DNA of 64,000 bases, from the NCBI RefSeq assembly GCF_006345805.1, contig NC_043001.1, forward strand, positions 89,032,001-89,096,000. The letters run 5' to 3'. Positions 3,126 to 52,314 of this stretch are shown piece after piece. A program made the position numbers and the translations under genes. A model generated the notes under the pieces. It searched no databases, had not been told where the DNA came from, and saw only the letters and a program-made list of their open reading frames with translations. Position 1 is the first letter of the stretch. Each line of letters opens with the position of its first letter. Origin of the DNA: Octopus sinensis. Taxonomy: Eukaryota.

Positions 3126-4197
3126 GTCCTCTTCCCATCTTTTCCTTGGTACATACAGTCTGTCTGTGTCACTTTTTGGGTGGAGTATCCCATATCTAGA
3201 TATCAACTTCCTTGCCTTTCTGTCTAAGATGTTTAGGTAATCTACTGTCTATGCGATTACCCCTACTCCATATCTAAGGAGTGAAACCACCCAGGTGTTG
3301 ATAGCTTCAATCTTATTCCATTCATTTAATTTTGACTTAGGGATCAGTCTCAGTCTGTGCAAGAACTTCACCTTAAATTTTTCTGTCATTTCTTTCTCCA
3401 TCAATTTATCCATTTCCAAAATCCCCAAGTACTTATAACCCATCTCTTTTATCTGGTTCATAACCTCCCCCGATGGTGTCATCAGCCCGTCCATACATTT
3501 GATTTTGCCTCTCTTCAAGACTAACACATCACACTTTCTCAGTCCGAACTCCATTCTGATATCAGCACTGAAAGTATACACCATATCAACGAGGGAACTG
3601 ACTTGGACTTCATCTTTATCATAAAGTTTGAGGTCATCCATGAATAACAAATGGTTGATTTTTTCTTTACAGCTTTTGAATACATACCCAGTTTTTGCTT
3701 TTCTCAGAATCAGTGTTAGTGGTATCAAACACAGTACAAAGATCAGTGGGGACAGGCAATCTCCTTGGAAGATGCCCCTCCTAATTTCTACTGTCCCTAA
3801 ACTTCTTCCATATGCTGTGAGGTCCGTCCTCCAATTCACCATATTTTTCCCAAGCAATCGCTCAACATTCGATGCAATACCAAATAGGTTCATGCATTCC
3901 ATAATCCAAGAATGTGGGATCATATCGTACGCTTTACGATAGTCGATCCATGACATGGCTAAGTTACTTTTCCTCCGCTTGCAGTTTTGTCTATCAGGAG
4001 TTGATCCTTGGTACCTCTGCACTTACACTTGCAACCCTTTTGCTCATGTGGCAGGACTCCCAATTTTTTTCCAGATGTTCATACACTGATTCTGTGAGTA
4101 TTCCACTTAATAATTTCCACATAAGTGGCAGACAGGATATTGGCTTGTAATTGTCTACCGTATTGCTTTTTTCAATGTTTTTCAAGCACAGTACTGC
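3126..4197 (-). mobile_element. R4/Dong-type non-LTR retrotransposon RT fragment
   Basis: [65 protein letters not shown]; flanked by (TTA)n. Confidence 0.88.
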
Positions 4198-28945: not shown

Positions 28946-30987
28946 CCTACTATTTGTGGTACGAGGGAACTGTAATGCAGAGAATAAAATACAGTTCACC
29001 CACCTCTCGTTGGCTGTCCAGCTGTGTTAAGCCCAAACATGTGTCCTATCCATCTTACCTAATGTTAGCAGCTGCTACTACCAATCCCTGCTAGCTTGCT
29101 CCACTCACATCCATTTACCACGACTGACCTAGACTGAAAAAGGATGACCCTAGTCTTGCTTCCCTCACTTCTTGTCTCCCACTTCCTGTTCCAGTGGAGC
29201 CCCTTGAGTGTTGACATCACAGCCCTTTCCCTTCCGGTTCATCTCATCCCCATACATCCCCCACCTGATCTCAAAGATCACCTCCTCACTTCACTCTATG
29301 TAATCTTCCATCTTCCGCTCTTGCCCTCTCTAGGCTCTCCTGCATCATTGCCACCATCCCCTCTCCCACTTTGTCTCCCCAGTTTGTCCTGTCTGCTCAT
29401 CTCTTGATGTAGCTGCATGTTGTTCATAGCCTCCCTGCAGAAGAGAGAGAGGGCCTGCCTTTGTGCAGGTTGGGGGGGGGGTGAAGTTTGGGTCAAGCCC
29501 CTGAAGGCATGCTGCACATCTCAGTGGAACAGAGGAACAGTGACAGTGGTTAATTCCAAAAATATTGTTTCTGTGGATGGAATACCATGTCATGTCTTGG
29601 ATGTTCACAGAATTGTCACTTCATCGGACAATGAAGGTGGAGGAGATGAAGAGAATAAGGCCCCCTCCCCGCAGAGATTAGAGTGTGTGAGGCATCCACT
29701 TGGGTGATGGCAGATTTTGACATGGAGTGAACTGAGGAGGTGATCTTTGAGATCAGGGGTGGGGGAATGAGATGAAACAGAAGGAAAGGACTGTGATGTC
29801 AACAGTCAAGGGGCCCTTTCCTTCCAGTTCATCTCATCCCCACACACTCACTGATCTCAAAGATCACCTTACTTCACTCCATGTCGAAATCTGCCATCCA
29901 CTCAGGTGGATGCCTCACGTGCTGTGATCTTCACAGGGAAGGAGCCTTGTTCTCTTCAGCATTGGGGTTCCCCTTTTCAATGCTACTCTACCATCCACTG
30001 CTGACCATCACACACCAGCAGAAAATCTTTGTCCTCAATGGTGTAAGCAGTACAATCCCTCGTGGAGCTTGTTCCACTTGTGTCTCTTCACTACAACTGC
30101 TGCAGGCCAAAGGTGGATGACCCTGGTCTTGCTTCTCTCACTTCCTCTCTCCCCCTTCCTGATCCTGTGGGGCCCCTTGACTGCTGATGTCACAGCCCTT
30201 TCCTTCTGGTTCATCTCATCTGGAGATGGTGAAAACACAGATATACCAATTGAACGAAGAGGACACCAAATTATTGTTACAACCAACCACATATTTGTTA
30301 TTGGTCGATTTAACCCAACCTACTCAGGGTTGTTTAATGAGGTATGGTCCTTTAACATATCAACAAACTTATGGACAAAGTTTAAAACAACAGGTCCGGC
30401 ACTAACGCAGGTTGCTTCTCATTCAATGTGTCTTCTTGGAAACAACATATTTGTGTTTGGTAGATCAGGCCTGTCATTTGGCATGAACAGTGGCAATGCT
30501 ATTTATCAACTCGATCTTCTCAAGCCAACCATCATTAAATGGTGATGCTGCAAATTTCCCTTCAAAGAAATATGGGCATACTATGCATCGAACTGACAAT
30601 TACAAATACATCTGTGGTGGTACATGAATCTTACCATCTTGAACTTAGCACAAAATCTTGGGAATATATTGAATGTAAAAACCCACCAGAACCAAGACAT
30701 TGGCATGGAATTGTAATGCGGGGAATAAAATATGGTTTACCTACCTCTCATTGTTGGCTGTCCAGCTGTGTTAAGTCCAAACACATGCCCTACCTGTCTC
30801 ACCTAGTATTAGCCGTTGCTACTACCAATCCCTGCTAGCTTGCTCTACTCACATCCATTCACCATGACTGCCCCAGGCTGAAAGAGGGCGACCCTAGTCT
30901 TGCTTCCCTCACTTCCTATCTCCCCCTTCCTGTTCCGGTGGAGCTCCTTGACTGTTGACATCACAGCCCTTTCCTTCCAGTTCATCA
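28946..30987. mobile_element. Composite ~2-kb insertion with ~275-bp direct repeats (28971-29245 and 30712-30987, both starting TGTAATGC), extra partial and inverted copies, and the kelch fragment; interrupts a SINE
   Basis: The SINE is split between ...aaaatacagtaccag (28945) and gtgctggggtcgat... (30988). A partial direct copy lies at ~30110-30218 and an inverted pair at ~29655-29790 / 29813-29958. Confidence 0.7.
30219..30711 (+). pseudogene. KLHDC10: Kelch-repeat gene fragment resembling KLHDC10/slim, frameshifted
   Basis: PIERRGHQI...IFVIGRFNP..LFNEVWSFNISTNLW...VASHSMCLLGNNIFVFGRSGLSFGMNSGNAIYQLDL, then shifted frames PSKKYGHTM..YICGG and YHLELSTKSW...PEPRHWHGI. This follows the kelch 1-4 order of KLHDC10 as I recall it (GGYNP, ASMSLVLHGNNLLVFGGTGIPFG, YGQ, PEERYRHE). 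Confidence 0.75.
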
Positions 30988-31470: not shown

Positions 31471-31506
31471 TACATGCATTATAAATGTCTATATAGATAT
31501 TATAAA

Positions 31507-31542
<36 letters not shown>

Positions 31543-31545
<3 letters not shown>

Positions 31546-31826
31546 TTCACTGAGTTTACATATATACAGATACGAAGTCCAGGCAAATATCACCAGCCGA
31601 CCGGTGTCTGCTACTCTAGGCCGATGAAGGACAATGATCCTGAAACACGGTGTCCCTAGATGCGGTTCCAGCGGTTGGGGGTGTTTGTCTCCCCTTCGTA
31701 TATGTATATAAGGACACAGGGAAAAAATGTGTCGAAGCTGTCAGGAAGCGTTCGATGCCTCCTAGGGCTATACAACGGTGGTGTACCCCCTACTGTCACG
31801 TTCTTGTTAGATTGACAGTATACAAC

Positions 31827-31831
<5 letters not shown>
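31543..31831 (+). mobile_element. ~290-bp structured, CpG-retaining non-coding element with a hammerhead ribozyme, inserted in (TA)n (retrozyme-like)
   Basis: Bounded by pure (TA)n on both sides, has no meaningful ORF, and contains an HHR plus several hairpins. Confidence 0.75.
31615..31660 (+). ncRNA. Type I hammerhead ribozyme (U4C core variant); predicted cleavage after C31654 (GUC)
   Basis: TCTAGG | CCGATGA | AGGA-caatga-TCCT | GAAA | CAC-G-GTG | T C | CCTAGA: perfect 6-bp stem I, 4-bp stem II, near-palindromic stem III. Confidence 0.85.
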
Positions 31832-31880
<49 letters not shown>

Positions 31881-32299: not shown

Positions 32300-32753
32300 G
32301 TATATCAAAAGGATGTGTTATAATACTATTCCACAGCTATACCAACAATTCAACATATCTCCATCATCAGCTGCCCCACGGATATCATTATGGTTTTGAC
32401 ACCTGGGCAGTACCATTTAATCTGGCAGTGTCAACAGCACTAAAATAAGTGTTGTTTGGGAACTAAGAAACCAAAGAAACCACAACTTCAAACACATTTA
32501 CCCAATGTACAACTGTATCAATAAATAAATTCCATAAGTAAATTACAACCCCTCTAAATATGTAACTAAACAGTGACAATTCTATGAAGTCATAAAAAAT
32601 TACATTTATGAATGTATGTATATATATATATGTGTGTGTGTGTGTAAGTATGTGTATGCATATGTAGGTGTATGCATATGTAGGTGAAATAAAACGAGAC
32701 AACAAAGCCAAGGCAGTCTGAAAGTTCTAGGATATTTTATAAAGAAAAGGGTA

Positions 32754-32801
32754 GTCTTACAGCTGTTTCAGGGATATAAAAGATATCCCATCATCAGAAA
32801 T
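32754..32801 (-). ncRNA. Minimal type I hammerhead ribozyme (left-arm copy)
   Basis: Minus strand attt | CTGATGA | tGGGATATcttttATATCCCt | GAAA | CAGCTGT A | agac; core and stems II/III are identical to the right arm. Confidence 0.83.
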
Positions 32802-32977
32802 GATATGAGAGAGTTAAATAGAAGGAAATAGTAGAGTTCAATATAAGAAGTTATTTTGGAGAGGGAGAGATATTGGAGATATAAAGGGAAATATTTATAT
32901 TTCCTACATCTCTCCCTCTCCAAAATAACTTTTTATATTGAACTCTACTATTTCTTTCTATTCAACTCTCTCATATC

Positions 32978-33025
32978 GTCTCTGATGATGGGATATCTTT
33001 TATATCCCTGAAACAGCTGTAAAAC
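32978..33025 (+). ncRNA. Minimal type I hammerhead ribozyme; predicted GUA site at 33021
   Basis: gtct | CTGATGA | t GGGATAT-ctttt-ATATCCC t | GAAA | CAGCTG T A | aaac: canonical core and palindromic stem III ACAGCTGT. Confidence 0.85.
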
Positions 33026-33769
33026 TACCCCTCTCTTTATAAAATGTCCTAAAACTTTTGCATTGCTTTGGCTTTGTTGTCTCATTTTAGTTAACCTATA
33101 CATGCTCACACATGGCCTGCATTTGACTCATCACCAGTGGCAGCTCATAGATAAAATTAGTTGAGATGCTGCTTCAGAAAATGTTTAGCTGTTGTTTTAG
33201 TAGGAAACAAACATATAGGAAGAAAGTTTATACATAAATTTGATCGATTCGCATTTTAGCCGCTGCCGAGTAGTGTGTTTAATTTATTCACTGAACACCA
33301 CCACAAATTCGCCCTCCTTTTTCAAAAATCCCCCTTTGCCCCCCACAAATGACAAAATAAAGGAGGGGGGAATGTGCCTTAGTTTTCAAATCCTGGCAGC
33401 AGGATAATAATCTAATTCTACACTTTATTACATTCAAGAATATAAACACATTTTTAAGCACAACACACGTGTAGTCAAAAAGAAACACTAACTTTCACCA
33501 GAACACAAAGGTCGGCACTGTCATTCATGCACTGCTCTCTCTTCCTAGTGTGAAGCTTCCTATCTTGGACATGTGAGCATGCACACAACAGCCAACACTG
33601 TCGCTGGAACTGAAGTGCATGGTTCTATACAAGGATATTTGTATTTTTTTCATAAACTAGGGGATGGCTACTGACATTAAGCTTAAGGATTATATAATGT
33701 ACAAGTATAAAGAAAGAATTAAAGAAAAAAGGACTCATAATATTGAATGTTATCGATAATATCAAGTGG

Positions 33770-39495: not shown

Positions 39496-40211
39496 TAAAA
39501 GAGAGATTAGAGTCTGTCTCTTATATGTGAAAAAAAGGCTCCAGAGTTGTTTTGGATTTGCTTGGTTTCGCGCCTAAAATTTTGATCGGTCATTATGAAG
39601 GGGTCACGTGAATGTTTGAATGGAAGTTGGTGTTGGGGTAAGAAAAAGGCTCCAGAGAAGTTAAAATTTGGCTAGTGTCCCGCCTAAAATTTCTTATTGG
39701 CCATAATAAAGAGGTCACGTGAATGTTTAGAATTTTCGAAAATAGTGTTGTTGAAAATTCTTATTGTTCAGGCTGGTCAGTAGACGTCATGTGGATATTT
39801 TAAATAGCTTTTTAGCGCGTAGTTAGGGAGTGTATTTTCCGCTTGACTGGATAAGTAAGTTCGTTTAGAACAGGGAGAGCTGTATGTATGTATGTGTGTG
39901 CGCGCGCGCGCGCGTGTGTGTGTTTATATGTATGTTGGGGCGCGCGCGCGTGTATATATGTGTATGTGTGTGGGTACAATTTTCAATATTTATAGTTCTG
40001 CTGGCCTTGTGCCTGTATCGGGAAGCAACGTATTTGTGTGAAGTCAATATTTACAGCCATTTCCAAAAAATAGTGTTGGATGTTTTGCACCCGTATTCAA
40101 TTATGTGTATGTGTGGAACCATATATTTGTGTGTGTGTCATGGTGTTAATATCTGGGTAAAGGTGTGTGTAGGGTGTGTGCAGGTGTAAGTGTGTTTGTT
40201 GTGGGTTCGTG

Positions 40212-41754
40212 TTAGGGGCATGTGTTTAGAAGTGGTCTGTATTTATTAATAAGGTGGGATTCCATGGTTATTCGCTGGGTATGAGTGGCATTGTCTTTAA
40301 ATTTGTAGAGGGGAAAGATTCTAAAATTGGGATGGAGTTGTGCGGCACAGGTATCAATATGTGCACTAAATGCTATTTTTCTATATTCTTCCTGTATTTT
40401 TATTTGGGATCTGTGGACAGTCATGCGTTGGCGGAGGCTATTTTTTGTTTGGCCTATGTAGTGTTCATTACAGCCCGAGCAAGTTAAGACATATACTAGG
40501 TTTTCTGATGCGCATGTGAAGTTGTGTTTTACTGTGAAACGTTGTCCTTGTTTAAAAAGGAATTCCGGACCTTCTATTAGGTTGATGCATATACCACAGT
40601 TGGGTCTATTGCATTTGTTTACTGTGGGTTTAGTTGTGGTTGGCAGTACTTTGGCATTTGTTAGGATGGTTTTCAATGATTTGGGTTGCCTTTTGCTCTT
40701 TATGATTTCGTGTGTTAGGAGGATTTGGTTCATTCTATGGTCCTTTTGTAATACAGGAATGTTCTGGAGGATGGTGTCAAAAGCTTCATTGTTGAGGGGG
40801 TTGTGTGTAGAGATGTATGGTAGAGTATGGGGTTTCGATGTAACAGGTTTAGGGCGTCTAAGTTCCTGCGTGCTGAGTTTTAGGGCGCGTTGGATCCCAT
40901 TGTCAATTAGTGACGTGGGGTAATCCCTGCTTGTTAATGTGCCCTTGAGTTCTTGTAGACGTAAGAGACGGGTGTTTTTATTGGAGACTATAGTGCAAAT
41001 TCTCTTGGCTAAGTTGTAGGGAATGTTATTTTAACGTGTCTAGGGTGGCATGAATTGAAAGGGAGGTATTGCTTGGAGTCTGTGGGCTTGTAGTATATGT
41101 CTGTTTCTATTTTTTTGTTGTGAATTTTAATGAGGATGTCGAGGAAGGGAATTTGTTGAGGGCTGTATTCCATTGTGAAAATAATGTTTGTGTTGAGCCC
41201 ATTTATAAGAGTGTGAAATTCGTTAAGCTTCTCGACGGTTTCGGGCCAAAGGATGAAGCAGTCATCAAGATATCTCTTCCAGTTCTTCTCTATGTGTGTG
41301 TGGAGAGTGGTGCCAAATTGGTTAAGAACGTTATTATAGAGGGTGATTTCCAGGTATCCCATGACTAAGTTGGCGTAAGTGGGAGCTGTTTTCGTTCCCA
41401 TTGCCGTCCCTGATTTCTGTCTGTAGAATTTGTTGTTGAAGGTGAAGAAATTATTCTCTAAGATGAATTTGAGTCCTTCTAAAATAAATTCCTTTTTGAT
41501 GCGGTGTGGGAGTTCGTTGGAGTAATTATCCAGCCAGAATTGGATAGCTTCTATTCCTAGGTTGTGGGGGATGTTGGAGTAAAGATTGACTACATCGAAT
41601 GTTACTAGCAGGGTTTGTTCAGCAAGAAGTGTATTGGGGAGGTGGTTGAGCATATCTAGATCGTCCCTTATGTAGCTTTTAATGTGTTTGAGGAACGGCT
41701 TGAGAAGGGTATCAATGAAGTTGCTAAGGCGGTGGGTTTCGCAAGCGGGACCTG
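40212..41754 (-). pseudogene. Penelope-like RT plus GIY-YIG ORF, 5'-truncated at the inversion junction, with one apparent frameshift near 41030
   Basis: The RT frame (ORF 41009-42097, genuine part from ~41754) shifts at RHVK to NNIPYNLAKRICTIVS... and runs into the GIY-YIG ORF 40212-40733, stopping at 40212. Confidence 0.88.
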
Positions 41755-42397
41755 GCCCTAAACCTGTTACATCGAAACCCCATACTCTACCATACATCTC
41801 TACACACAACCCCCTCAACAATGAAGCTTTTGACACCATCCTCCAGAACATTCCTGTATTACAAAAGGACCATAGAATGAACCAAATCCTCCTAACACAC
41901 GAAATCATAAAGAGCAAAAGGCAACCCAAATCATTGAAAACCATCCTAACAAATGCCAAAGTACTGCCAACCACAACAACTAAACCCACAGTAAACAAAT
42001 GCAATAGACCCAACTGTGGTATATGCATCAACCTAATAGAAGGTCCGGAATTCCTTTTTAAACAAGGACAACGTTTCACAGTAAAACACAACTTCACATG
42101 CGCATCAGAAAACCTAGTATATGTCTTAACTTGCTCGGGCTGTAATGAACACTACATAGGCCAAACAAAAAATAGCCTCCGCCAACGCATGACTGTCCAC
42201 AGATCCCAAATAAAAATACAGGAATATAGAAAAATAGCATTTAGTGCACATATTGATACCTGTGCCGCACAACTCCATCCCAATTTTAGAATCTTCCCCT
42301 CTACAAATTTAAAGACAATGCCACTCATACCCAGCGAATAACCATGGAATCCCACCTTATTAATAAATACAGACCACTTCTAAACACATGCCCCTAA
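41755..42397 (+). pseudogene. Second, inverted copy of the Penelope linker plus GIY-YIG domain
   Basis: ORF 41682-42341 repeats PKPVTSKPHTLPYISTHNP...CNRPNCGIC...HYIGQT; a 1-bp frameshift lies near 42297. Confidence 0.85.
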
Positions 42398-43112
42398 CAC
42401 GAACCCACAACAACACACTTACACCTGCACACACCCTACACACACCTTTACCCAGATATTACACCATGACACACACACAAATATATGGTTCCACACATAC
42501 ACATAATTGAATACGGGTGCAAAACATCCAACACTATTTTTTGGAAATGGCTGTAAATATTGACTTCACACAAATACGTTGCTTCCCGATACAGGCACAA
42601 GGCCAGCAGAACTATAAATATTGAAAATTGTACCCACACATACACATATACACACGCGCACGCGCCGCCCCAACATACATATAAACACACACACGCGCGC
42701 GCGCGCGCACACACATACATACTACAGCTCTCCCTGTTCTAAACGAACTTACTTATCCAGTCAAGCGGAAAATACACTCCCTAACTACGCGCTAAAAAGC
42801 TATTTAAAATATCCACATGACGTCTACTGACCAGCCTGAACAATAAGAATTTTCAACAACACTATTTTCGAAAATTCTAAACATTCACGTGACCTCTTTA
42901 TTATGGCCAATAAGAAATTTTAGGCGGGACACTAGCCAATTTTAACTTCTCTGGAGCCTTTTTTCTTACCCCAACACCAACTTCCATTCAAACATTCACG
43001 TGACCCCTTCATAATGACCAATCAAATTTTAGGCGCGAAACCAAGCAAATCCAAAACAACTCTGGAGCCTCTTTTTTTCACATATAAGAGACAGACTCTA
43101 ATCTCTCTTTTA

Positions 43113-48711: not shown

Positions 48712-50484
48712 CTATACAGCTGATTCTCTGCCGTATGCATAGCTTACCACTGAGTAAAGAGAGGTCTGGGAGCCCAAGTTGGAATTGAAGTCTTTCTGAG
48801 AGTAAGGAGGAGTTTCTTGGGTTAAACTGGACGGGTTCTGAACCATTGAGTTAAAATAGTTCCTAACATTGAAACTTCGGTCTGACTCATTCAAGGACCC
48901 AATATCGAGATCCTGAAATGCTCTTCGTTTCTCAGATTTTTCCAAATGACTGCTATCTTCTGCAGATCGGTTGCACAGCCAATTTGGGCCATTTTTTTTA
49001 CAAACACACTTCCAGAGAACTATTAAAGCCATGAAAACAACAACTGCAAAAATACTGCAACTTATTGCAATGATTAATACCGTATTAGAATCTGGTTTGT
49101 TCTTCAACTCGACATCACACTTGGAAATCTCTTCATCTGTAAGCTGTTTAATGCGGCGCTCATGTAGACCTAATGGAATCTCACACTGAAGAAAATCACA
49201 CCCATCAGATTGATACTGATTTGAGCACTGTAACGTTCGAGAATATGTTGGATTCTGTAACCAGTTACGGAATCCTCTTATATGACAGTCACACACCCAA
49301 GAGTTCCTATCAACTTTTATCCATTTTAAATTGGAAAATATACGCAAAGTTGATTCTGGGATATTTTTGAGATTATTAGCAGAAAGATCTAATTTCTGAA
49401 GGCTTCTGGGTCCTTCAAATTGGTTCAAACTGTTTATTGAACAGTCAGAGAGATTCAGTTCTCGCAACCGATATAACTCTGTAAAAGCATTAACTGGAAG
49501 TTTTTGGAGAGGATTTCCAGATAAGCTTAAATATTCAAGCTGGGGTGCCATTGGATGCAAAGAGCCACTGTCTAAATGGTCAATTGAGTTCAGTGATAAA
49601 TCTAAATGTTTAGTGTTGAAGTATTTAAAAGTCTCATCAAAGATCTGTCGAAGATTATTCCGAGACAAGTTCAAAGTATCAAGGTTGATACCAGAAAACT
49701 GGTTCTCTTCTAGTTTATAAATGGTATTATTGTACAAAGAAAGAGTCCTCAAATTTGGAAGACTGCGAAGGATATTCAGCATGAGAGGTTTGGTCAGTCC
49801 GTTACTTGACAAGTCCAAGCTTATTAAATTACGAGTAATTGTGAACAGATCCGTTGCTATTGAAAACAACTGACAGTTACTAAGTGATAAATGCAGCAAA
49901 CTGCGCAACCACTGAAAACTGTAGCTGTAAATATTCTGCATGTTATTCCCATCAAGGATCAAAGTGTTCAGCTTACCTTGAGACTTAAAAATACCACTCG
50001 GGAGAGAATAAACCTGGTTCCACGACAAGTCAAGAAACTCTAATTTATGTAAGGTGTAAAAAATATCATCAATATTTGCAATCAAGTTGTGAGACAGATC
50101 TAAATGAATTAGGTTCGAGAGTCCTTCAAAGGCTTTGTTGTCTACATTGGTGATATCATTGTGTGTCAATGAAAGATACTGTAAGTTCACCATGCCTTGG
50201 AATGTTGTCTCAGAAAGTTGAGAAATGTAATACTTTGTTACAGTTAAGTTATTGAGTTGACTGAAGGATTCAGTACGAGAAAAGCTTTGCTTCAGATCAC
50301 CACGCATCTTACTGCCCTGTAGTGTCAGCTGCTGTGTAGATTTCGGCACTTTTGCAACTGTGTTTTGTAATGACCCACTCTGGCACACCACCACAGTGCC
50401 AGAGCAGCTGCAGGAAGTGGGACAGCCATTTGTATATGTCAGAAACACAATGAAGAATAAATAGTATGATAGAGATTTGATCAT
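48712..50484 (-). CDS. Leucine-rich-repeat single-pass transmembrane protein (signal peptide, LRRNT, roughly 14 LRRs, LRRCT, TM, cytoplasmic tail with C-terminal ESAV); CDS in one exon, 590 aa
   Basis: Uninterrupted ORF. A pyrimidine tract and AG acceptor (minus strand ...ttttgttttattttctAG|aaac, exon starts 50495) precede the ATG at 50484. MIKSLSYYLFFIVFLTYTNG is signal-peptide-like; CPTSCSC is LRRNT; repeated LxxLxLSxNxI/L units follow; NSWVCDCHI..F..WL is LRRCT; VLIIAISCSIFAVVVFMALIVLW is the TM segment. No Ig, FN3 or TIR domain is visible. Confidence 0.93.
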   Translation of the reverse strand: MIKSLSYYLFFIVFLTYTNGCPTSCSCSGTVVVCQSGSLQNTVAKVPKSTQQLTLQGSKMRGDLKQSFSRTESFSQLNNLTVTKYYISQLSETTFQGMVNLQYLSLTHNDITNVDNKAFEGLSNLIHLDLSHNLIANIDDIFYTLHKLEFLDLSWNQVYSLPSGIFKSQGKLNTLILDGNNMQNIYSYSFQWLRSLLHLSLSNCQLFSIATDLFTITRNLISLDLSSNGLTKPLMLNILRSLPNLRTLSLYNNTIYKLEENQFSGINLDTLNLSRNNLRQIFDETFKYFNTKHLDLSLNSIDHLDSGSLHPMAPQLEYLSLSGNPLQKLPVNAFTELYRLRELNLSDCSINSLNQFEGPRSLQKLDLSANNLKNIPESTLRIFSNLKWIKVDRNSWVCDCHIRGFRNWLQNPTYSRTLQCSNQYQSDGCDFLQCEIPLGLHERRIKQLTDEEISKCDVELKNKPDSNTVLIIAISCSIFAVVVFMALIVLWKCVCKKNGPNWLCNRSAEDSSHLEKSEKRRAFQDLDIGSLNESDRSFNVRNYFNSMVQNPSSLTQETPPYSQKDFNSNLGSQTSLYSVVSYAYGRESAV

Positions 50485-52314
50485 CACCCAAGTTTCTAGA
50501 AAATAAAACAAAAAACAGTATTAAGACCTGAATTTATTATTTTTTATTATAAATCTATTATATTAATTAATAAATTAGTTCTTAACAGTGGCTATTAATA
50601 AATGATTACAGATTACCATTTATGTGTAAATACTATAAGAGTTTCACATATGTAATACAATGACTTGAAAACCAGATTATCAAAGTAATTAGTAGATAAA
50701 ATCTCCTCGAAGATGTGCTTAAAATCTAAAAATCAAAAGCTCAGCAAACAAGGGAAATAACTGCAGGAAGATCAGTTGATTGCTATGTTTCAACAGAGTT
50801 GGCAAGAGAGACTTAACTGGATTTTGGCTTTTGAAACAAATTAACAGAAGTAACAGACATGTTTTTGATCTTATTAGATCTTGCTCTGCTGAAGACGTCT
50901 TTGACCAGTTAGCTTTAATGGTCAGTTCCACTCCAGACAATATTATCTATCATTGTCAAGAAGACATAGAAAGGAGATGATTATTAGGCAGAGGAAGATA
51001 ATGAGAAATGGAAGTGGTTTTGGGCAGGGAAGAAAGGTTACTGAGAAAGCCAGTGGGTGGAGGGATGTAGTATGTACTTATTCTGTTCTCAGATGATAAA
51101 AAAGTGATGAGTGTTAAGAGATGAAACATGGGGTGAAAAGGCTGATGGGGCAGAGAGGATGGAGTTGGGGTAGAGCCCATCTCAGATAAGCATTATCAAG
51201 GTAGTTTTAGGATATCAATTCTGCTGTGGTAAGTGAATCTTCTTGAGTACAAAAAAGTGCCAAATATCTCAGTCCTTTGTCATCTCTTTCGTAAGACTCA
51301 GCAACTTGAGATTGGCCTTCAATACTTCACGTGCACACACACATATATAAACAGAGAGGAAGAGAGGGGGAAGTCAGAGAGAGGATATGTTAGAAGAGTC
51401 TTAATTTATGGAAAAGAAATTGGGGAAGGAGAATGTTAAAAAATATGTGCCTACCATAATTCACTGGGTCCCATACGTCCTACATAACAATTGAGTCTCA
51501 ATATTGTTTATCTACTTAGTGATTCTTGCATCGTTATTCTAACTTGCACAGTGAAGTCTATGCTTTGCTGAGAAGGTCTAATAAAATTAAAACAAATCAA
51601 GAGTTGTGCCCCATACTTGCTTAGTAATTAAAACATTTGTCACTGAGTTAATGTTGATTTTTTTTCTCACCACATAAGTATTCTAATTGGATTGTTGATG
51701 CTACATTTACTTATGAATTAGCAATTGTTTTTCAAACAGAAATACAAGCATGGCTGTGTGTTCAAGCAGTTTGCTTTCCAATCGTGTGGGAAAATACTAG
51801 CGTCTAACATTATTATCATCATTCTTGCATGAGTTAGACAGAATTTTTTGACATAGGTTTTGTATGGCTGGATGCTCTTCCTATTGTCAACCCTCACCAG
51901 TTTCTAAGCAAAGTAATATTTACCCATGATCAGACATGTTTTCATGGAAGATAGAAAACAAATGATGTACATTTACAACCACCATGATATGCTGCAAGGA
52001 GAAACACTGGTACAAACACATTATATGTGTTTGTTTGTGTATATGGTTGTGTGTGTGTGTGTGTGTGGAAGAGTATGGCCTTAGTGGTTAGGATGTTGCA
52101 CTCATGATCATAAGATTATGGTTTTGATTCCTGAACCAAGCAATGCATTCTGTTTGTGAGCAATCCTGTGACAGTCTGGCATCCCATCCAGGAGGAATAT
52201 ATATGCCACAGAATCCGGAAAATCACCCTTATGAGCTTATGGCTTGGGAAAGATCTTGGATTCTTTTTTGTTTTGTTTCTTTGTCATTTTGATACATACA
52301 CTCAAATGTGTACG

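Follow-up and report, generated by a model that had tools for sequence, protein, structure and literature searches.

Positions 31543–31831 of the window (the whole stretch of 64 000 nucleotides that was analysed) hold a copy of a hammerhead repeat, which belongs to a family named F1 here. The copy is 289 nt long and lacks the first 76 nt of the F1 monomer. Its features and those of its immediate flanks are as follows.

31490–31542, unstranded: (TA)n target, 5′ side
31543–31831, + strand: 5′-truncated, empty-site copy of hammerhead repeat family F1 (monomer positions 77–364 of 364)
31559–31569, + strand: TATA-like box, about 25–30 nt upstream of the leader, a putative promoter
31561–31710, + strand: rod extending stem I, with compensatory changes across families and enriched in A>G
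31587–31602, + strand: leader, or insertion site, ATATCACCAGCCGACC, empty in this copy
31608–31665, + strand: type I hammerhead with a distal stem I, a UAC bulge, the loop 2 CAAUGA and a near-palindromic stem III (dimer type)
31621–31627, + strand: catalytic core CCGAUGA (CCGATGA in DNA; U4C), the norm of family F1
31652–31654, + strand: GUC triplet, cleavage predicted after C31654 from the hammerhead consensus
31713–31733, + strand: hairpin GACACA/TGTGTC
31743–31763, + strand: hairpin AGGA(A/G)GCG/TGCCTCCT
31791–31820, + strand: hairpin TACTGTCA/TGACAGTA, directly preceding 31831, the first of the two fixed 3′ ends
31832–31878, unstranded: (TA)n target, 3′ side

Stem I of the hammerhead (TCTAGG at 31615–31620 and CCTAGA at 31655–31660) pairs at six of six positions on the + strand, as claimed by the first-pass annotation, which had placed a hammerhead here; stem II (AGGA/TCCT) carries the loop CAATGA, and GAAA stands at 31642–31645. 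The 1-nt loop that had been read in stem III is present, as are the (TA)n runs on both sides, and the copy contains no ORF of 150 aa. The pairing counts given for the rod were reproduced exactly: 31581–31599 and 31672–31690 pair at 18 of 19 positions, four of them G-U, and 31561–31577 and 31694–31710 at 16 of 17. The mismatches within these two counted stretches are A·G and G·A; A·C is found at 31670 and 31747, where it represents rare G>A departures from the F1 majority.

When the two strands were folded, the + strand was favoured (−103.2 kcal/mol and z −4.2, with none of 200 shuffles as stable, compared with z −2.0 for the − strand). The active hammerhead core is absent from the minimum free-energy fold, and Rfam gives no hammerhead call for the copy at the gathering threshold or at E ≤ 5. 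The copy holds a single ribozyme and could not form a circle alone. Since it is empty, lacks 76 nt and has only this one ribozyme, it is probably a dead end. Elsewhere in the window, a Kelch-repeat coding frame (29928–30700), a gene or a retrocopy, lies about 1 kb upstream of the copy; a leucine-rich-repeat frame of 602 aa, probably with a transmembrane segment, occupies 48712–50520 (−) and a LINE RT fragment 3249–4022 (−).

Copies, ends and relatives of the repeat

The 2.72 Gb genome was searched with the 289-nt copy as the query, giving 1772 first-look candidates, of which 40 were scored; full-length matches have 95–100% identity. Exact matches to a 32-nt pattern of the core number 189, so that F1 has at least 189 copies. 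In many loci, what precedes position 1 is identical to what follows position 289, and the unit is therefore a head-to-tail monomer of 364 nt (364–365 nt) rather than the unit of about 290 nt first proposed. Dimers and one trimer, the longest array, were found among the dispersed copies.

The core CCGA (U4C) is present in 62 of 65 F1 copies. Among the first 100 core matches listed, 97 carry CCGA and three CTGA, the latter fitting CpG decay from CCGA. This rules out U4C as decay of the window copy, and C4, not the restored U4 that had been proposed as the reference, is the norm of F1. Except for position 4, the core hardly varies. According to PMC3088659, U4C reduces activity in vitro but is compatible with viroid infectivity. 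Our literature search found nothing on a hammerhead CCGA core with the uridine turn. CCGA-core hammerhead-like motifs were also seen in unrelated repeats (L062, 4200–4260; L116, 2310–2370; L110, 3170–3210), which suggests that U4C is common across the genome searched.

We surveyed the arms of the copies at 52 non-redundant loci (8 of 60 were dropped as overlaps), with 84 arms in total. Their 3′ ends are fixed: 39 arms stop at position 364 and 36 at positions 53–59 of the next monomer, 56 nt further on, leaving nine that end elsewhere; 58 of the 75 arms that end at one of the two sites run into a TA run. The arms exceed one monomer in 27 cases and cross the cleavage site in 67, and inverted arms occur in 30 of the 52 loci. 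Inverted arms truncated at the 5′ end, a facultative tail and insertion into (TA)n are described as marks of PLEs (PMC8557442); in an anole PLE, RT starts internally at two sites, and the tail is what lies between them (PMC11167929). All of these features of PLE-mobilised sequences (5′ truncation, inversion, two 3′ ends defining a tail, a (TA)n target) are present in F1. Directly after the second fixed 3′ end, at monomer positions 50–76 in all families (for example L061, 2115–2140), there is a U-rich tract ending in AG|TG, conserved in position, that resembles a 3′ splice site.

We infer a partner PLE for F1. No ORF joining RT and GIY-YIG domains is attached to the repeats in 70 F1 loci, 26 body regions, 60 sister loci and seven PLE loci, and these seven PLE loci, drawn from 147 GIY-YIG matches, share no sequence with the repeats. 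The window itself contains a broken PLE at 39600–43100 (RVT_1, GIY-YIG and a CxxC linker, with an inverted duplication); it shows no similarity to the F1 repeat, and was rejected as a partner because the two have no sequence in common. A large palindrome at 32690–33090 carries two outward-facing minimal hammerheads of another family, with the canonical core CTGATGA, a long stem II and a palindromic CAGCTG stem III, and looks like the inverted pLTR pair of a different PLE. In L200, an intact RT-EN ORF of a PLE overlaps at its start with an out-of-phase frame at 2–910; the latter has no Pfam match and is possibly a frameshifted ORF1.

At least five sister families (F2, F3, F4, F4b and F5) keep the layout of F1; F2 and F3 gave about 2200 first-look candidates each. 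Stem III is palindromic or near-palindromic in each of them. The core of F3 is the canonical CUGAUGA, and further changes occur in other sister cores (UUGACGA and UUGAUAA). In F5, covariation of U3-A8 keeps the core pair, a variant that has been described for PLE hammerheads (PMC4209133). Across 13 sequences, 29 of 78 pairs show changes on both sides, a level reached by none of 500 shuffles, a result that is not a probability since the structure is that of the window copy and the sequences are related. Such changes affect 4 of 6 pairs in stem I, 3 of 4 in stem II and 13 of 40 in the rod, and the true register pairs at 83% compared with 33–46% for slid registers; neither these covariation counts nor the substitution counts below are independent events. 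Compensatory changes in the rod, suggested earlier as something to look for, are thus found across families, together with covariation of stems I and II and of the loop-2/bulge motif. The circular fold favours the + strand in five of five monomers tested, with z −6.5 for one F1 monomer and −7.8 for another.

A>G changes within F1 are six-fold enriched in the rod (48/1624 compared with 25/5336 elsewhere, polymorphic columns being skipped), whereas T>C changes amount to 0.8% both inside and outside the rod. We read this excess, which editing of the plus-strand RNA by ADAR would be expected to give, as edits of the rod that were fixed by reverse transcription. The G-U pairs of the window copy at 31583 and 31664 are A>G changes with respect to the family majority. 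The first reading of this locus had taken the G-U pairs, set against one A-C mismatch, as a sign of selection on the RNA fold; selection gains from the covariation and the plus-strand bias, but for some of the G-U pairs fixed A-to-I editing is a better explanation than wobble pairing kept by selection.

Contigs from four runs presumed to be RNA cover both the repeat and the body described below. They have no readable start or end sites; the empty junction is spanned in two, and in one the end is joined to the start, as tandem DNA would also give, so that they do not enter the evidence.

The type I hammerhead, the multi-copy monomer within 150–450 nt, the lack of an RT, with ORFs present solely as inserts at the leader, and the stable circular fold would make F1 a retrozyme-type element. 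Rather than a single-copy sequence devoid of covariation, or copies confined to the 3′ ends of long PLEs, F1 is multi-copy, covaries and has no RT ORF joined to the copies examined, in line with the retrozyme candidate of the first-pass annotation on the points that can be tested computationally. The monomer size and the PLE-type insertion marks add to this part of its reading; the LINE and ORF1 passengers of the family were not visible from the window, and the alternative of a viroid-like, RNA-to-RNA replication finds no support.

We consider it probable that the window holds an empty, truncated copy of a retrozyme-type repeat moved by a PLE, in a family whose leader site holds LINE or ORF1-only elements in a minority of copies. 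In the proposed cycle, a predicted TATA-like promoter within the repeat would drive its transcription, transcripts of several monomers would cleave after GUC as dimers, and the monomers would ligate into circles. The PLE RT would then start internally at two sites 56 nt apart, priming in (TA)n, and by running past the cleavage site would produce the inserts longer than one unit.

The main rival, which we regard as unlikely, holds that the ribozyme is weak and the template linear: the repeat would be a non-autonomous PLE derivative, a solo or tandem pLTR, copied from uncleaved read-through RNA, with a hammerhead that is weak or dependent on a protein, and no circle. Non-canonical cores in four of six groups speak for it, as do the PAc hammerhead mutants, which insert normally and cleave only with protein (PMC11167929), and the fact that tandem read-through also gives inserts longer than one unit. 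PLE insertion in vitro needed no cleavage (PMC11167929), and most Xenopus retrozyme dimers are inactive, with eight of nine failing to cleave (bioRxiv 10.64898/2026.07.22.740005). Against this rival stand core positions that are near-invariant except for 4, stems I and II and a loop-2/bulge motif that covary across families, and the covariation that preserves the U3-A8 core pair in F5. For the preferred, PLE-moved retrozyme, the weakness of U4C, the altered sister cores, the inactive Xenopus dimers and the cleavage-free PLE insertion imply that the circle step may be dispensable. Further points weighing against the preferred reading are the lack of a partner among the seven PLE loci compared, the shortness of the arrays, the minimum free-energy fold that leaves out the active core and, for the leader site treated below, leader sequences that vary from family to family, bodies between ribozyme-free termini and the limited likeness of the LINE and body tails.

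The leader site and its occupants

An AT-rich box lies 25–30 nt before the leader in seven of seven groups printed, and this like spacing indicates that the leader site is probably a transcription start. Some 30 nt 5′ of the core, certain F1 copies are interrupted by an insert of 1.7 kb, the body, which has a single ORF of about 450 aa and ends in AATAAA; 9–16 nt of the leader are repeated on both sides of these inserts. The protein is predicted to combine a CCHC knuckle with tandem RRM-like domains (model pLDDT 66). It is homologous to the ORF1 of a LINE described below (26% identity, E 3e-24), and the bodies have no ORF2. No match was returned by a word-indexed homologue search or a PDB sequence search, whereas a profile search gave 1008 relatives. 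The ORF1 of the bodies is under selection, with a dN/dS of 0.04–0.16 between families across codons 1–245, apart from one close pair at 0.34 and two pairs that are saturated.

The bodies form arrays of one to four or more, of mixed subfamilies, the newer copies lying 5′. Older bodies stand at the equivalent position in F1b, F3-like, F4 and F5 repeats, whose leader sequences differ; the common site is therefore not accounted for by simple sequence-specific cutting. A pair of adjacent bodies has some 100 A>G changes in common (101 of 605 A) compared with one G>A, with a 5′ G avoided (7/178). The amino-acid changes in a second ORF1 body, at L187 6516–7874, also fit dense A>G hyperediting. Among the first 100 of 193 promoter-side junctions of F1 listed, at least six are filled and 94 empty, the filled count being a lower bound as one body type cannot match the junction pattern; 12 exact body 3′ junctions were found in F1. 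None of the 60 F2 and F3 query loci has a body of its own. In L122, an F2 repeat carries a SINE-like insert (1850–2070) at the position equivalent to the leader site, with a 3′ end like that of N-type bodies.

Some bodies lie between unrelated, ribozyme-free termini, as in L111/L112, L105/L106 and L107/L108 (arrays R101–R113). On the 5′ side the terminus is 340 bp long and has CCAAT and TATA boxes; on the 3′ side it measures 860 bp and closes with a hairpin followed by TA. Together these termini are a second host element for ORF1 bodies; Rfam detects no hammerhead in this ribozyme-free ‘N’ tail.

A full-length LINE was found at C10:88927935–88933240 of the genome searched, inside an F4 repeat at the leader site and upstream of a body. 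It encodes an ORF1 with a CCHC motif, followed by an APE-type endonuclease, RVT_1 and zf-RVT. We take this LINE to be ‘Tx1-like’ from its domain layout and behaviour; no named Tx1 appears among the matches listed for its RT, the closest named match being from an octopod (65%). In 18 LINE copies, which are among the closest of 150 ORF1 matches listed, every 5′ junction is at the leader site, 15 with an F4-type repeat directly upstream and three with the tail of another LINE copy. Of five LINE 3′ ends, four run into the hammerhead and one into another LINE, and in F4b the 17-nt leader is repeated at both ends as a target-site duplication. Among the first 100 of 113 F4b sites listed, 16 are filled and 84 empty; in three inverted F4b pairs one arm contains an insert and its partner does not, which is what insertion subsequent to the landing of the repeat would give. 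All full-length copies of the LINE that were seen are in F4/F4b and none is in F1; the 3′ tail of the LINE has only motifs of 11–13 nt in common with that of the bodies.

Judged from these junctions, the leader site of F1 and its sisters is a fixed landing site for a LINE and for ORF1-only elements, a parasite in a parasite. The ORF1-only bodies are likely to be derived from the LINE. Copy structure, fixed 3′ ends, inversions, covariation, the A>G excess of the rod, occupancy, duplications and selection on ORF1 are all observed; the route that follows is proposed. The LINE and ORF1-only RNAs would be inserted at the leader by the machinery of the LINE itself. The benefit to the LINE would be a promoter together with a safe site present in many copies, like that of Tx1 in Tx1D. 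Filled loci truncated inside the body, with no promoter upstream, or inverted together with their bodies (R119, L185, L195 and L074) suggest that filled copies also seem to move whole, and such copies would sometimes be re-copied by the PLE route.

These same four loci, where the composite seems to move as a unit, together with the strong selection on ORF1, could also be accounted for if repeat and body were one co-evolved, RT-less, HeT-A-like passenger of a PLE carrying an RNA chaperone, the monomer being a deletion product of template switching between leader copies. The body and repeat trees agree in part, F1 bodies and F1 repeats each forming one clade, and the distance matrices correlate (rho 0.34, 0/2000). 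However, the bodies of F4, F5 and F1b intermix whereas their repeats are far apart, bodies also occur in unrelated termini, most sites are empty (94 of 100 listed, compared with at least 6 filled), the 60 F2/F3 query loci are free of bodies of their own and a full LINE uses the equivalent site with a target duplication. We judge this single-element origin quite improbable; in particular, the 364-nt monomer as the deletion product of an ORF-bearing element is made less credible by the partly discordant trees and the LINE insertions at the site.

Since 18 of 18 LINE copies are flanked by the repeat or another LINE, and no partner PLE was found, one may wonder whether the LINE rather than a PLE reverse-transcribes the repeat, which would then be a detachable promoter-plus-ribozyme module of the LINE. 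The two types of 3′ end argue against this: those of the LINE and bodies consist of an AATAAA tail and a leader duplication, whereas those of the repeat fall at two internal sites into (TA)n, with outward inverted arms, the PLE pattern. We therefore hold this explanation to be highly improbable, and retain a PLE-moved repeat into which the LINE and its relatives insert.

A bolder extension, which is speculative and rather unlikely to hold in full, is an RNA ecosystem in three tiers. Retrozyme circles would borrow the PLE RT; the LINE and its ORF1-only offspring would find start sites by position or structure and not by sequence; and filled copies between two hammerheads (as in L062) would give protein-coding circles, with the RRM-RRM-CCHC product as a chaperone of the weakened U4C ribozyme. 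If this were true, the passenger would have become a partner of the ribozyme.

Comparison with known systems

The retrozyme part is an already known kind of element. LINEs that target other transposons (PMC4494074) and ORF1-only LINE derivatives (PMC5753468) are also known already. Our literature search found no LINE that targets a retrozyme; the families described here could already stand in Repbase, in paywalled papers or in the supplements of PMC7229834 (lists of invertebrate retrozymes) or of bioRxiv 10.64898/2026.07.22.740005. The main text of PMC7229834 makes no mention of an octopus or cephalopod retrozyme.

As a retrozyme family, F1 is young and rich in copies; its inserts show where the RT of a PLE would start and carry fixed ADAR-type marks, which makes the question of how animal retrozymes move a testable one. 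Natural families are also seen to run on U4C and other altered cores. A ribozyme retroposon joins the list of LINE targets, and the targeting of one position across families with differing sequences bears on site choice by target-specific LINEs. The finding ties together three subjects that are usually separate.

Non-LTR retrozymes, with units of 350–390 nt in mussel, have been proposed to depend on PLEs (PMC7229834, Cervera and de la Pena 2020; Li, Clavereau and Pollet, bioRxiv 10.64898/2026.07.22.740005). F1 resembles them in its canonical-type type I hammerhead, its non-coding head-to-tail monomer in the range 150–450 nt and its dimer-type stem III. It differs in having a U4C core as the norm, in occurring mostly as dispersed sub-dimer inserts with PLE-type inversions, and in having, together with its sisters, a defined site for LINE and ORF1 passengers. 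With PLE pseudo-LTRs that carry hammerheads it shares 5′ truncation, inverted arms, an optional 3′ tail from two RT starts and (TA)n targets (PMC4209133; PMC11167929; PMC8557442). Unlike them, it has no joined RT-endonuclease ORF, its hammerhead is of the canonical type rather than minimal, and it closes on itself in 364 nt.

Target-specific LINEs of the Tx1 clade include Tx1 in Tx1D, Tx1-Mar and SINEU in Mariner-N4 and Keno in U2 (PMC4494074). The insertions described here are like theirs in entering another repeat, in forming tandem insertions that share a duplication of about 16–17 nt, in having non-autonomous followers and in their possible transcription from the target. Here, however, the target is a ribozyme retroposon, entered at its predicted start site, its sequences differ between families, and filled targets seem able to move again.

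HAL1 (half-L1) is an ORF1-only, non-autonomous LINE derivative (PMC5753468), as the bodies are, whereas the bodies are site-specific, form polarised tandem arrays with the newer copies 5′ and have an invertebrate host. In Terminons, co-oriented accessory ORFs lie beside hammerhead repeats (PMC6431247). A co-oriented ORF next to a hammerhead repeat is also the arrangement here, but the locus is not telomeric and the ORF is a LINE ORF1 with signs of insertion by duplication. HeT-A elements are gag-only and use the promoter of their upstream neighbour. The bodies are comparable as gag-only-type elements that would use the promoter of an upstream neighbour, and are distinguished by lying outside telomeres and by an ORF that is a LINE ORF1, with signs of insertion by duplication.
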